Origin: a virus
Direction: 5' to 3' (one strand)
DNA length: 64,000 nt
Virus record (IMG/VR): IMGVR_UViG_3300045988_116984
The position numbers were made by a program, and so were the translations under genes. Each line of letters opens with the position of its first letter. Positions within the stretch are counted from its first letter, which is position 1. The notes below the pieces were generated by a model. That model made no database searches. It was not told the origin of the DNA and saw only the letters and a program-made list of their open reading frames with translations. This document shows positions 21,708 to 46,167 of this stretch, piece by piece.

Positions 21708-22331
21708 ATGTTAAGTTTCTCTGTCAAGAAGCAAAAACTCGAAAGAAAAGACAATCAAGAAGTGGTTGGAGGAACATATAATTACTTATATGCTGTATTT
21801 GACTTTTCATATGATTGGGACAACGTTTCTAAAAATGCAATATTCAATAACTGCAAAGCAAAGAAAAACTTTGCCGTTCCTATTGTAGAAAATATATGTC
21901 TTGTGCCATGGGAGGTTATAGAAAGTCCAAACTTTACGGTATCGTTATATGGATTTACAGACAACAAGAGAATAACTTCTAATGAAGTTATGATACCAGT
22001 TAAAAGCAAACCATATAACGCCAATAACATTCCATCACCGCCTCCGACACCAACTGATTATGAAGCATATGTACAACTTGTAAATAAATATAAAGAAGAA
22101 TCGGACGCTCAATACAATGAGCTTAAAGAAACAAAAGCGGAAGTAACAACAACTGACAGCATTTATAAATTCCCGAATATCGGGAACAAAAACTATCTAT
22201 ACATTGATTCTTCTACTAATACAACGTATAGATGGGATGAAACCGAATTAAAGTATTATTGTGTTGGTTCTGATTACAGAGAAATAGAGATTATCATAGG
22301 GGGGAAAGCAAGTGGCAAATACAACTCTTAA
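21708..22331 (+). CDS. hypothetical protein
   Basis: 207-aa ORF 4 nt after the previous stop. Confidence 0.55.
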   Translation: MLSFSVKKQKLERKDNQEVVGGTYNYLYAVFDFSYDWDNVSKNAIFNNCKAKKNFAVPIVENICLVPWEVIESPNFTVSLYGFTDNKRITSNEVMIPVKSKPYNANNIPSPPPTPTDYEAYVQLVNKYKEESDAQYNELKETKAEVTTTDSIYKFPNIGNKNYLYIDSSTNTTYRWDETELKYYCVGSDYREIEIIIGGKASGKYNS

Positions 22332-23710: not shown

Positions 23711-26092
23711 GTGGCTAATAGAAACCTAAACGCTCGACAGCAGCAAAAACATGATACTTCGTCCAATTTTAACTCTAAAAATGCCACATATTTAGAGGGC
23801 GAAATCCTTATTGAAAGTGACACCGGCAGAGTTAAGATAGCTGATGGAGATACAGATTATAAAACGCTCCAATATACTATTGGAACTCGTGTACCAACAG
23901 ATGCCAAGTTTACAGATACCACTTATACTGCTAGTGGAGGGCTGTCCCTTAGCGGGACAACCTTTTCCATTGCTAATTCTGGTGTAACAGCGGATACTTA
24001 TGGGCCAACTGCTAATGTATCTGGCTCTTGGGGAACGTCGTTTACAGTACCAAGCGTTGTTGTAAATACTAAAGGACAAGTTACGAGCGCGGTTGATAGA
24101 ACTGTTACTATGCCTGCGAAACCAACCGCTGCTGATATTGGTGCCGAGCCAGCGTTTACAAAAAATACAGCGTTCAACAAAAATTTCGGAACTGCTTCTG
24201 GAACTGTTTGTGAGGGTGACGATGAGAGATTGTCGAATGCGCGTCCTGCTTCTGATGTTTCAGCATGGGCAAAAGCGGCTACAAAGCCAACCTATACCCC
24301 AACAGAAGTTGGCGTCATTGGTGCAGCTCCTGCTTCTGGGCAAGTAGCTGTTTTTGATGGTACAACTGGTAAGATTAAATCTACTGGGTTTACGATAGCA
24401 ACATCGGTGCCTGCCAATGCCGAATTCACAGACACAACATATAACAAAGCAACAGATTCTTCTCTTGGACTGGTGCAAGTTGGATATTCCACTTCTGGAA
24501 AAAACTACGCTGTTACTTTAGACGATTCTGGCAATGCTTATGTAAACGTCCCATGGACGGATTCTGTTGCTAATAACCCAGCCATAACAATTACACAAAA
24601 CGGAACGTCTAAAGGCTCTTTCACGCTAAACCAGACTTCGGCAGAAACAATTGATTTGACTGATACAACATATTCTGTTTTTGAAGCCGCCACTTCAAGT
24701 GTAGCAGGTAGTACCGGATTAGTACCAGCTCCTGCGGCTGGCAAGCAGACGAGCTTCTTACGAGGAGACGGGACATGGGTTATACCGTCTCAACCGACAG
24801 TGAATAATCCTACTATCACAATAAAACAGGACGGCGCGACCAAAGGGACATTTACTTTAAATCAATCTGGAGATGCCACAATAGAGCTTACTGACGCCAA
24901 TACGACTTATGCTCAAGCGACATCAACAGTCCTTGGTTTGGTTAAGATTGGATACGCTGAAAATGGCCGAAACTATCCAATTAAGCTTGATTCTTTGGGG
25001 AAAATGTTTGTCAATGTACCATGGACAGACACAACATATTCCGTCGCCACTGTTAGCGAGGATGGATTGATGCCTAAAATCCCAAGTTCGTCTGCTCAAT
25101 ATTTAAACGGCATGGGACAGTGGAGTACACCACCAGATACTAAATATACAAACTTTGTCGGTTCTGGCTCTGAAGCTAAGTCTGGACTTGTTCCGTCTCC
25201 GGGGACAATCGCTGGCACAACAAAATATCTAAGAGAAGATGGAACATGGAGTGTACCGCCAGATACTACATATACAGCAGGACGAGCAATTGAAATTAGT
25301 CAAGGCGCTATTAGCGTAACAAGCAGTGGTGTATCTTCTGGCGCATACGGTTTAACGGATAGTACCAGTGTTAATATTGGTACGTCATTTACTGTTCCGG
25401 GGTTTGTTGTTGACCAATGCGGTAGATTGACGCAGGCATACAGCAGGACTGTTACTGTTAATGCGCCAAATATGACTGGTGCCACAACATCAGCAGCAGG
25501 AACGGCTGGCTTGGTTCCTACGCCTACTGCGGGGAAGCCAACAAGGTACCTTTGTTCAACCGGAGAATGGAGTATACCCACTGGAACTATTTATAATGGA
25601 AGCACAACAATATCCGTTAAACCGTCTACAACTGATGGAGAATACAATATATATTTAGTTGCGTTATTTCCGGGCACTACAAGCCAAAGCGTTGGACCAA
25701 GCGCATCAGGAACAATTAATTTTGGCTCTGCTTTTAATGTGCCATATATAACGATAGACCAATATGGCAGAATCACGGCATTAGCGAATAGAAGTATGAT
25801 TCTTAGTGGAGCATTAGCAAGCAGCTCTGCTCCTGGTTTGTGTCCAAAGTTAGATTCGTCACATCCATCATATTATCTAAATGCTAATGGAAGTTGGAGT
25901 CTCCCAAGAGGCAGAGTATATGGTGTAAAAGGAGAAGCCGAAACGGATTATCGTAAAGGACAAGTAAACATAACAGCAGATAATATTGGAGCATTATCTC
26001 TTTCTTCTGGCGGCACAGTTGCTGGTGCTACAACGTTTAGTAGTGATGTTACTATTAGCGGCGAACTAAATTATGATGGTGGATTCTATTGA
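23711..26092 (+). CDS. long tail fibre with internal repeats
   Basis: 793 aa, GTG start after AAGGAGGGG. Recurrent blocks: FTDTTY, VNVPWTD(T/S), GLVP.P...K.LR.DGTW. Confidence 0.75.
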   Translation: MANRNLNARQQQKHDTSSNFNSKNATYLEGEILIESDTGRVKIADGDTDYKTLQYTIGTRVPTDAKFTDTTYTASGGLSLSGTTFSIANSGVTADTYGPTANVSGSWGTSFTVPSVVVNTKGQVTSAVDRTVTMPAKPTAADIGAEPAFTKNTAFNKNFGTASGTVCEGDDERLSNARPASDVSAWAKAATKPTYTPTEVGVIGAAPASGQVAVFDGTTGKIKSTGFTIATSVPANAEFTDTTYNKATDSSLGLVQVGYSTSGKNYAVTLDDSGNAYVNVPWTDSVANNPAITITQNGTSKGSFTLNQTSAETIDLTDTTYSVFEAATSSVAGSTGLVPAPAAGKQTSFLRGDGTWVIPSQPTVNNPTITIKQDGATKGTFTLNQSGDATIELTDANTTYAQATSTVLGLVKIGYAENGRNYPIKLDSLGKMFVNVPWTDTTYSVATVSEDGLMPKIPSSSAQYLNGMGQWSTPPDTKYTNFVGSGSEAKSGLVPSPGTIAGTTKYLREDGTWSVPPDTTYTAGRAIEISQGAISVTSSGVSSGAYGLTDSTSVNIGTSFTVPGFVVDQCGRLTQAYSRTVTVNAPNMTGATTSAAGTAGLVPTPTAGKPTRYLCSTGEWSIPTGTIYNGSTTISVKPSTTDGEYNIYLVALFPGTTSQSVGPSASGTINFGSAFNVPYITIDQYGRITALANRSMILSGALASSSAPGLCPKLDSSHPSYYLNANGSWSLPRGRVYGVKGEAETDYRKGQVNITADNIGALSLSSGGTVAGATTFSSDVTISGELNYDGGFY

Positions 26093-26104
26093 TAGGTGAT
26101 TATT

Positions 26105-27064
26105 ATGGCAATTAAAATACAAAGGCAGACGGCATCAGCGTCGTCTGCCTCTCCTCCCTCTACGCTTCCATATGGGGAATTAGCATGTGATAAAACGGCA
26201 GTTTTATATGTCGGAAATTCGTCAAATTTGCCTGTTAAAATGATGGACACGAACAGTTACAATCAAGTTGGCAATCCAAATCTTTTAGACAATACAAACT
26301 TTAAGAATTTAGTAAATCAAAGAGGTAAATCTTCTTATTCATTAGACTGGAAATATTGTATTGATAGGTGGGTGCTTTTAGGAACATATTCCGTCAGTAA
26401 TCATACGCTTACTTTTGATGCCGGATACCAAACGTCAAGATTTGGGCTTGACGCAATATCATACATGCGTCAAGGACTTGAAAAACTTGATTCTGGTACA
26501 TATACAATATCGGCAGGAGTCGGAGATACAGTATATTCTCAGACTATATCCGTTTATCAAGGCGGTTCAGCAAATGCATGGAACATGGGGCCATTCTATT
26601 TTACATATGAAAAATTCGTTGGTGTGGATGTACAGTGGTTTGGCTTTGGGGTTACACCGGGAGAATCAGGCCCAGGCTCTATTGCTTTAGACTGGATTAA
26701 ACTTGAGCAGGGTGATAAAGCAACACCATATTCCCCGAAAGGATACGGAGCTGAATTAGGCGAGTGTTCAAGATATTTTATAAGCGCTATTGGATTTGGT
26801 GCTCCTGGAATTATAAACGCTAGTAGTTCAAGACTATTCATAAATACTCCTGTAATGATGCGTGGAGTGACACCAACCGTAACTGTAAATTCTCCTGATA
26901 ATATTGTATTCAACGGTACATTTAAAGCCCTAAATACAACGGCAACAGGAGCGCAAAGATTTAAAAATGGTATTCTTGTAAATATAGGTTCGGCGACAAC
27001 AGGAGTTACAAATACTCCCGGTATTGCCTTTGGATTATCTGTTGATATATCGTGCGATATATAA
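26105..27064 (+). CDS. receptor-binding / fibre-tip protein, paralogue A
   Basis: ATG 26105 after AGGTGA. Shares YNQVGNPNLLDN, WIKLEQG.KATPY.PKGY and ECSRYF with the next gene. Confidence 0.65.
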   Translation: MAIKIQRQTASASSASPPSTLPYGELACDKTAVLYVGNSSNLPVKMMDTNSYNQVGNPNLLDNTNFKNLVNQRGKSSYSLDWKYCIDRWVLLGTYSVSNHTLTFDAGYQTSRFGLDAISYMRQGLEKLDSGTYTISAGVGDTVYSQTISVYQGGSANAWNMGPFYFTYEKFVGVDVQWFGFGVTPGESGPGSIALDWIKLEQGDKATPYSPKGYGAELGECSRYFISAIGFGAPGIINASSSRLFINTPVMMRGVTPTVTVNSPDNIVFNGTFKALNTTATGAQRFKNGILVNIGSATTGVTNTPGIAFGLSVDISCDI

Positions 27065-27079
27065 CTAAGGTGGTTTAAT

Positions 27080-27963
27080 ATGCCTATAAAGATATATAGA
27101 CAAAATATTTCCGCAAATGAGCCATTGCCCCCCCGTTGACTTACGGAAATATAGCGTCTAATAAATATGGAAAACTATATGCGGGGGACTCATCTAATAG
27201 CCCAATTGGTATGTTAGATGAAAAGACTTATAATCAAGTAGGAAATCCAAACTTACTAGACAATAGCGATTTTACAAATGCTGTAAAACAACGTGGAGAT
27301 ACCATATTTGATAGAAATGGGTATTGCGTTGATAGATGGCAAGTGTTTGAGTCTACATATGACACTACTACAAAAACTGTTACAGCTGATGATGTAGTTG
27401 AATCTTGTGGCTCTCAGCTCAGACAAATAATAGACCCAAGCGTACTTTGTGAAGGAGACACTATTTCGGTTAGTGCTTATGTAAATAATACACTTTATAA
27501 GTTTACCACAACTATAACGACGTTTAGTGATTCAGGTTTAATTTCAGACGCTCCTTATGCTTTGGAAACGTCTTGGGGCGGATTTAAAATAGTTCTATTT
27601 GCTCATAGGCCGGAAATATTTTTTGTAATGTTTTTAAATCCGTCTCAAAAAATAACTGTAAATTGGGCCAAACTGGAAAGAGGAGCATCTGTAACACCAT
27701 ATGTGCCCAAAGGATATTGGCAAGAGCTGTCGGAGTGTTTAAGATATTATCAAACAATTGCTTTTTCAGTTGGAGCAGATAGAGCAACATATAAATATAT
27801 TCCGACACTTACTCCTATGAGGACCACACCAACGTGTACATTACAACAGATAGCAGCAAGTGGAACACTGCCAACAATATCAACAAACAATTTGTACATA
27901 ACGGCGAATTTGGCAACGCCACAGTATTTTGACGGAATTGCATTGCTTTCGGCAGATTTTTAA
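27080..27963 (+). CDS. receptor-binding / fibre-tip protein, paralogue B, frame broken at a C7 tract
   Basis: MPIKIYRQNISANEPLPP (27080-) hits TGA at 27137. The homologous body continues in the -1 frame from 27136. C7 lies at 27128-27134. Confidence 0.6.
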
Positions 27964-27976
27964 GGAGCGAACTTAC

Positions 27977-28327
27977 ATGGAAGATGGAAAATATATCGTA
28001 TATATCCGTGTTGACGAGAATGGCAGTATCATAGAAATAAATAGTGATGCTTTCTTGGATAACATAGATGGCTATATAGAACTTGATAGTGGTTATGGCG
28101 ACAAATACCATCACGCTCAAAATAACTATTTTTCTAAGCCGTTGTATGACGAACAATGGTGTGCCAACTATAAAATGGAAAACGGCATTGTATTGGAACG
28201 CACAGAAGAAGAAAAAGAGATTGAGATGTCTAATAGGCCTAAACCATTGCCAACGGGCGAGGAGAGACTTGCCGCTCTTGAAGAGGCGATGTTAGCAACG
28301 ATGTCTAGGGGGACTACAAATGTTTGA
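27977..28327 (+). CDS. hypothetical protein of the fibre/lysis junction
   Basis: ATG 27977 after TAAGGAG; 116 aa. Confidence 0.6.
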   Translation: MEDGKYIVYIRVDENGSIIEINSDAFLDNIDGYIELDSGYGDKYHHAQNNYFSKPLYDEQWCANYKMENGIVLERTEEEKEIEMSNRPKPLPTGEERLAALEEAMLATMSRGTTNV

Positions 28328-28439
28328 CTTTTTAAAAATTCAATATGAACTTGGGAAGATAACAAAAGAGCAATTATATTCTTATGTTTCAACATGGATT
28401 TCCGAGTTTGAATATAAGAAAATAATTGGAGAAATGTAA
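28320..28439 (+). CDS. XkdX-like small protein
   Basis: 39-aa ORF (MFDFLKIQYELGKITKEQLYSYV...) overlapping the previous stop (ATGTTTGA). The pattern is typical of XkdX-family proteins near lysis genes. Confidence 0.45.
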   Translation: MFDFLKIQYELGKITKEQLYSYVSTWISEFEYKKIIGEM

Positions 28440-45450: not shown

Positions 45451-46167
45451 TTGGTATATGTCGGCTCTAAAAGACGCATTGCGAAAGATATTGTCCCGAT
45501 AATTCAGTCTTATATAACTGATAAAACTACAATGTACATAGAACCCTTTGTAGGGGGGGGCAATACAATACAGAGAATCAATTTCCACACTAAAATAGGG
45601 TATGATATTGACAAATATGTTATAGCATTGCTTGGCTATTGTCGCGACAACGGAGAAAGTATTAATCCGTTAATAACGCGAGAGGAATATAATCGCGTTA
45701 AAGATAATATGGACGACTATCCTGATTGGTATGTTGGGCTTGTTGGTTATTTAACAACTTTTGGTTCAAAGTTTTTCGGTGGATATGGACTACATAAAAA
45801 GGGTGATGAAGAAAGCCGAGTTGGATATGCGACTATAAAGAATTTTAAAAAGGAACAAGATTCACTTGTAGGTTGTAGTTTTATTTGTGAAGATTATCGA
45901 AATATTGATACATCTTTATGGAAGAACTGTGTAATATATTGTGACCCTCCATATAGAGATACGTTAAAATATAAAAGTAGTAACAACTTTGATTATGACT
46001 TTTATTATAACTGGTGTATACAATTGTCTCAAAACAATACAGTATTAATGAGCGAATACGACATGCCAAAAGAATTTAAGTGTATCTGGCAAAAGGACTT
46101 AAACTGCGGCATAACATCTTTAATTGATAAACAAATTAGAACAGAAAAGCTATTTGTAGTTAGGTGA
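45451..46167 (+). CDS. Dam-type (D12 class) N6-adenine DNA methyltransferase
   Basis: YVGSKRRIAKDI, EPFVGGGN, CDPPY; TTG start. Contains a G8 tract at 45553-45560. Confidence 0.8.
   Translation: MVYVGSKRRIAKDIVPIIQSYITDKTTMYIEPFVGGGNTIQRINFHTKIGYDIDKYVIALLGYCRDNGESINPLITREEYNRVKDNMDDYPDWYVGLVGYLTTFGSKFFGGYGLHKKGDEESRVGYATIKNFKKEQDSLVGCSFICEDYRNIDTSLWKNCVIYCDPPYRDTLKYKSSNNFDYDFYYNWCIQLSQNNTVLMSEYDMPKEFKCIWQKDLNCGITSLIDKQIRTEKLFVVR

Follow-up and report, generated by a model that had tools for sequence, protein, structure and literature searches.

This part of the window (the whole 64,000-nt stretch of DNA that was analysed) carries the module for tail fibres and lysis of an uncultured phage from the human gut. 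A pair of long fibres, each with an Mtd_N N-terminus, is followed by two tandem fibre-tip genes, which we call paralogues A and B, and then by a 117-aa protein, a 39-aa XkdX-like protein and an M23/GH25 endolysin (Table 1). A G6 run (22299-22304) lies at the end of the ORF at 21708-22331, just 5′ of where the 456-aa Mtd_N fibre begins.

Table 1. Features of the fibre-tip locus and of the distant methyltransferase gene, in window coordinates.
Feature	Coordinates	Strand	Remarks
Long fibre with Mtd_N N-terminus, 456 aa	22312-23682
Long fibre with Mtd_N N-terminus	23711-26092
Paralogue A, intact 319-aa tail-fibre-tip (receptor-binding-like) protein	26105-27064	+	ORF; PHROG 4492 tail fiber, E 1.2e-15
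Shine-Dalgarno sequence AAGGTGG of paralogue B	27067-27073	+	6 nt 5′ of ATG 27080; kept in relatives
Leader of paralogue B, 19 codons, MPIKIYRQNISANEPLPPR	27080-27139	+	frame 0 translation; stop TGA 27137-27139
C7 run, candidate contingency tract over Pro-Pro codons, including the invariant Pro	27128-27134	+	one C below the in-frame C8
Body of paralogue B	27136-27963	+	-1 frame, intact, unjoined to the start; TTG-started ORF, 275 aa
Partner gene, 117 aa, phrog_24451	27974-28327	+	after the fibre-tip cassette in every relative (synteny)
Dam-like DNA adenine methyltransferase gene	45451-46167	+	PF02086 in relatives

Paralogue B is split by its C7 tract. The ATG at 27080 has a strong ribosome-binding site, and the body that lies beyond the stop reads, in the -1 frame, ...APPLTYGNIASNK... 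/ ...PPLTYGNIASNKYGKLYAG... and is free of stops up to 27963. The start, the stop, the tract and the -1-frame body had all been placed by the original prediction, and each position proved exact on the sequence and in the ORF list. The tract occupies codons 17-19 of the gene, encoding Pro-Pro(-Pro), and a run of n C fuses the leader to the body when 48 + n + 1 is divisible by 3, that is, at C8 or C5. This arithmetic agrees with the earlier claim that one extra C, or two fewer, would restore a full-length protein. Reassignment of the TGA at 27137 was ruled out, as more stops follow in frame 0. Within the body, the remainder of an N-terminal adaptor ends at NPNLLDN; a central beta-sandwich domain comes next and a C-terminal module last. 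Neither the TTG at 27136 nor the next in-frame ATG is preceded by a ribosome-binding site, and the window copy of B is therefore effectively OFF.

The leader of B is homologous to residues 1-18 of an adaptor that is common to the family. Once leader and body are fused, the alignment of B with paralogue A begins at the first residue and has 33% identity over 293 aa (E 1e-40), as expected from the predicted match between the B leader and the N-terminus of A. In alignments of in-frame members the adaptor is conserved (M1, K4, I5, R7, Q8, P18, Y23 and G24, of which M1 to P18 are invariant), and the second Pro of the tract never changes. Paralogue A spells its Pro-Pro site TCT CCT CCC TCT, with no homopolymer, and appears to be stably ON in the window phage. 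In one relative (L007), paralogue A itself carries C8 and is out of frame, hence OFF.

Both paralogues match PHROG 4492, “tail fiber protein” (A, E 1e-15; B, E 9e-12), and the body of B matches the profiles of PHROG 4492 and 28838. An AlphaFold model of an in-frame B relative has a moderate mean pLDDT of 72.7, with 80-95 in the central beta-sandwich. Compared with BFVD, this model gave 45 matches with E no higher than 1e-3 (best 1.8e-10), the majority of them to tail-fibre or other tail proteins of phages, and a fold search of the PDB returned weak CBM22-like matches (E 4e-3). By sequence, the PDB yielded no meaningful match. From NPNLLDN onward, the body also occurs in other phages and in Clostridia (Ruthenibacterium among them), there in prophage-like regions, joined to quite different N-termini. 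Oscillospiraceae such as Ruthenibacterium are candidate hosts of the window phage. Thus, the first ~60 residues are predicted to be a phage-specific adaptor and the rest an exchangeable binding module. Homology, fold and modular exchange of the body all point to a receptor-binding tail-fibre tip as the product of B, in line with the original description of two receptor-binding genes in tandem, of which B is the second, where binding itself is a prediction. An effect of B on host range would follow from the same homology and fold. An assignment of the adaptor to Mtd_N (PF18454) found no support: A, B and 24 relatives had no Pfam match, and in hhalign the comparison with the 456-aa Mtd_N fibre reached a probability of 0.14%.

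The fibre-tip genes are three-module mosaics, in which the adaptor extends to NPNLLDN, the centre to TPYVPKGYGAEL-EC-RYY, and the C-terminal module follows. The relative P0002 combines the A adaptor with the B body and thereby bypasses the tract, P0024 joins the A adaptor and A centre to the B C-terminus, and P0023 and P0027 are further relatives with mosaic fibre-tip genes.

Relatives of B were found by searching proteins with leader and body fused, and their DNA junctions were then tabulated. Megablast of positions 25900-28400 against GenBank phages returned no match, and the sole tblastn match of an in-frame B relative was Clostridium phage HM T, at 28.6%. A scan of IMG/VR for the B-type flank recovered nothing but an unrelated giant-virus MAG (L018), and a scan of JGI metagenomes for the B-type pattern gave no match. 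The called N-termini of the close relatives are odd (MFPQMSHCPP..., MSHCPP..., MAYG..., MTYG...), because the gene caller meets the frameshift at the tract.

Across nine loci of gene B from other gut metagenomes, the tract ranges from C6 to C9. Given as the C run and what follows it, the junction is C7+G in the window, C7+TCA in L003 and L004/L005, C6+A in L006, C8+TCA in L007 and L041, and C9+A in L040. All of these copies, in the window and seven loci, are OFF. The gene is ON in L039, where the junction is C9+TCA and reads MSIKIHRQNVSANEPLPPPSLAYGN, and the in-frame B proteins on record are P0122, P0125 (NCBI UVY03723.1), P0131 and P0135; beyond L039, cluster members contribute three in-frame proteins. 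The OFF copies occupy both wrong frames, with an offset of +1 in L003, L004, L006 and L040; L007, L041 and the window copy have an offset of +2. L004 and L041 have zero synonymous differences over 600 nt (dS 0), yet one has C7 and the other C8. The variant class of the window, with a C run, one base and TTG (window C7+G, L006 C6+A, L040 C9+A), was seen only out of frame, and the C7 of the window is among the shorter tracts observed. Comparison of the tract among related phages had been proposed as a check on the prediction; its outcome is that lengths vary and that in-frame and out-of-frame alleles of B are both present.

Tract variation extends to the sister fibre-tip genes of the family, which carry poly-C at the equivalent codon, from C5 to C13. 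For the sister gene beginning MGIKILRQTISSTSTEPLPPPTTEYG... (MGIKILRQ...EPLPPPTTEYG), contigs with an identical truncated product carry C7, C8, C10 (six contigs) and C13. A tenth such contig (L008, 2397-2420) has an in-frame C9 and, separately, a nonsense mutation from CAA to TAA at codon 8, apparently a non-reversible route to OFF for this gene. We sampled the sister gene blind to its state, using a pattern with two flanks and a free middle, in IMG/VR and a metagenome collection. Among the 20 contigs recovered, nine have C9 (ON), six C10, four C8 and one C7. A third N-terminal type (MAMKIYRQIPSQLEAAPPSS...) is represented by OFF contigs with C5, C7 and C9, and variable tracts at the equivalent codon are found in two further N-terminal types and in a single paralogue A copy.

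In some relatives the XkdX-like gene and the endolysin are separated by a third fibre-tip cassette (L004, 4352-5335; L041, 2831; L039, 2891), with tracts of C6 (ON), C8 (OFF) and C12; this cassette is absent from the window. In L008-L038, ~1.4 kb downstream of the main tract, there is a small gene with its own poly-C between the flanks GTAACGGCTG and TATTGAGCTA. This sister-phage gene, with the N-terminus ...AAPPLLSYGQIAIDKDG, has C8 in two cases, C9 in 15, C10 in four and C12 in one, and its called product is 175 aa (in frame) or 155 aa.

For the tempo of these changes, homopolymers in 30 sister-gene loci were keyed by their flanks. The A6 and A7 runs of these loci are invariant (n = 12-29), and the poly-C tracts vary from C7 to C10 and, in the neighbouring small gene, from C8 to C12. 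Five contigs of the sister gene share identical 1.3-kb flanks and carry C10, C8, C7, C9 and C10. Mapped onto a flank tree, the tract states of 25 rows require at least 13 changes, against 12.6 with shuffled labels, and those of the 15 unbiased rows at least 7 against 6.6, with no phylogenetic signal. Given that the changes equal the shuffled expectation, we conclude that the tract evolves faster than substitutions accumulate in its flanks. All of this variation consists of differences in assembly consensus between samples and not within one population.

That the true tract of the window is C8, and its frameshift a homopolymer miscall, we consider most improbable. Homopolymers are prone to error, and some assemblies may carry miscalls at a single locus; against this, truncated products of the exact window allele are recorded on several contigs (P0003 on five, P0137 on two), independent assemblies of different studies differ in modal length, and the same contigs keep their A6 and A7 runs constant. 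Illumina consensus errors at a C7 run are uncommon. An assembly error in this particular contig would leave the conclusion on the locus unchanged.

The bodies of gene B are open in all eight copies compared, at lengths of 275-297 codons. Over the first 200 codons of the body, pairwise dN/dS is 0.10-0.35, with dS up to 0.43, and this range includes pairs in which both copies are OFF. The body is thus under purifying selection and not decaying. Codon choice in the tract is also unusual. CCC accounts for 38 of the 495 Pro codons of the window (7.7%), fewer than any other, and not one of the 25 remaining Pro-Pro pairs is spelled CCCCCC; we therefore conclude that the homopolymer is kept against codon bias in several paralogues. 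The C7 run is the sole C run of at least 6 in the window, where 0.17 runs of at least 7 are expected at 37% GC. Taken alone, a run of this length is mildly unusual and weak evidence; codon choice and the recurrence of the tract at the same codon in sister genes seem the stronger points.

These data bear on whether B is a plain pseudogene, killed by a one-base deletion and with no role in switching, as degenerating sequence downstream of the tract in relatives would have suggested. Such a reading accommodates the out-of-frame window copy, the predominance of out-of-frame copies among the relatives of B, and an intact paralogue A that may suffice. It fits poorly with eight open bodies under constraint even between two OFF copies, with a lesion that always falls at the same tract and varies in length, with the existence of ON alleles, and with CCC runs maintained against codon bias. 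In a decaying gene, dN/dS would approach 1 and further stops or indels would build up; the eight bodies have low dN/dS and no stops. We regard a dead gene as very unlikely.

Recoding would account for a conserved gene in another way: B would be fixed out of frame, and either a -1 slip of tRNA-Pro or stuttering of RNA polymerase would yield the full-length protein. We judge this quite unlikely, despite several features that suit it. On the C7 run, tRNA-Pro would find the same codons after a shift of frame, the 0-frame TGA is within two codons of the tract, most sampled copies of B are out of frame yet conserved, and the RNA downstream folds better than shuffled sequences (z -2.8). Relatives are, however, out of frame in both directions, and in-frame alleles are present (L039, P0125, P0131 and P0135), therefore no single recoding event is conserved. 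In addition, the 0-frame G CCC CCC departs from the canonical X XXY YYZ heptamer, and the closest stem in the predicted fold begins ~21 nt past the tract, as opposed to the 5-9 nt needed. Programmed -1 ribosomal frameshifting is disfavoured by the varying frame requirement, the in-frame alleles and the distance of the stem. Low-level leaky slippage could still occur on top of switching at the DNA level.

We thus favour, with a probability of roughly 0.8, a role of the C7 run as a hypermutable contingency tract that switches an accessory tail-fibre-tip gene of a human-gut Clostridia phage. The slipped-strand ON/OFF switching that had been predicted for B is supported, at the level of assembly consensus, by the variation in length, the ON and OFF alleles and the purifying selection on the body. 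In the mechanism we propose, the polymerase would slip on the C run during replication of phage DNA, so that progeny differ by one C more or less. At C8 (or C5 or C11) the 18-residue start of the adaptor would be joined to the body and tip protein B could be made. At C7, translation would end after 19 codons and the body, which has no ribosome-binding site, would stay silent. Paralogue A, with the same adaptor and an interrupted tract, would remain ON constitutively. In a phage population, virions that carry tip B would then be mixed with virions that lack it, as a bet-hedge against changes in the receptors of the host, and the states of this accessory protein would be both heritable and reversible. 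Phages in the OFF state are evidently viable, given that many samples have it as their consensus. The rate of switching in one population, the assembly of B on the virion via its adaptor and a change of host range are parts of this mechanism that we infer.

The window has only one other G or C run of at least 7, and with the C7 run and the G6 run upstream of the fibres it completes the set of at least 6. It is a G8 run (45553-45560) in the Dam-like adenine methyltransferase gene, where it is in frame in the SAM-binding motif (EPFVGGGN / FVGGGN). Many members of the 90% cluster of this protein are truncated, and a 152-aa form starting at Met87 is found on 67 contigs. Six contigs with this form have G9 (four) or G7 (two); these tract lengths came from cluster members, and a scan of IMG/VR for the methyltransferase tract gave no match. 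With G7 and G9 in truncated relatives, the phage appears to switch its adenine methyltransferase too, and the G8 run looks like a second contingency tract, in a phase-variable phage methyltransferase. Both G/C runs of at least 7 in the window therefore vary in length among relatives. Whether the clade runs a coordinated, selected set of tracts, with a poly-C for each cassette, placed in the adaptor against codon bias, and a poly-G in the methyltransferase, seems to us evenly balanced; if it does, bursts would contain combinations of receptor specificities and methylation states.

The tract of B works like known phage systems and involves no new principle. In Fletchervirus phages of Campylobacter, genes for receptor-binding proteins contain hypermutable poly-G tracts (Sorensen et al. 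2021, Cell Rep 35:109214; via PMC12823448, PMC10877375). As that system is described in these sources, it shares with ours a coding G/C homopolymer in a receptor-binding or tail-fibre gene that is turned ON or OFF by frameshift when the length changes, the presence of several genes of this kind per phage, and phenotypic diversity in the progeny. Relative to the same descriptions, our case differs in the phage lineage (gut, probably Clostridia), in an unrelated protein family, and in the position of the tract at the Pro-Pro(-Pro) codons of a common N-terminal adaptor; switching is also deduced here from differences between metagenomes and not from culture. More generally, phage contingency loci have been described as repeats in ORFs that undergo reversible slippage frameshifts and serve as a bet-hedge (Gomez, Barrick and Waters 2025, bioRxiv 10.1101/2025.10.21.683753). 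The present tract is likewise a simple-sequence repeat in a phage ORF subject to polymerase slippage. Those loci come from T-even and other cultured phages; they are many, mostly A/T repeats, and they fall in all gene classes, whereas the 64 kb here have just two G/C runs of at least 7, both variable among relatives, one in the methyltransferase and the other in the fibre-tip gene B.

Bacterial contingency genes with poly-G or poly-C tracts, as in Campylobacter, Neisseria and Haemophilus, also use slipped-strand mispairing as a stochastic switch of surface interactions, but here the replicon is viral and the switch would set the composition of virions in each burst, not the phenotype of a cell lineage. 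Invertible tail-fibre segments (Mu Gin, P1 Cin and the Rin shufflon of Bifidobacterium prophages) similarly pick a host-recognition tip stochastically; unlike these, the C7 site has no recombinase or inverted repeats, and the mechanism would be replication slippage. We found no paper on tract switching in this phage clade or in Clostridia phages.

In combination, these comparisons would extend homopolymer phase variation of host-recognition genes from Campylobacter and T-even phages to a widespread, uncultured clade of gut phages of Gram-positive anaerobes. The clade appears to have several alternative tip genes that use one common adaptor, each gated by its own tract. Split genes of this kind should not be labelled pseudogenes, and prediction of host range from a metagenome consensus would be unstable at such tracts. 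Counts of tract length at the level of reads could report on phage–host arms races in the gut.
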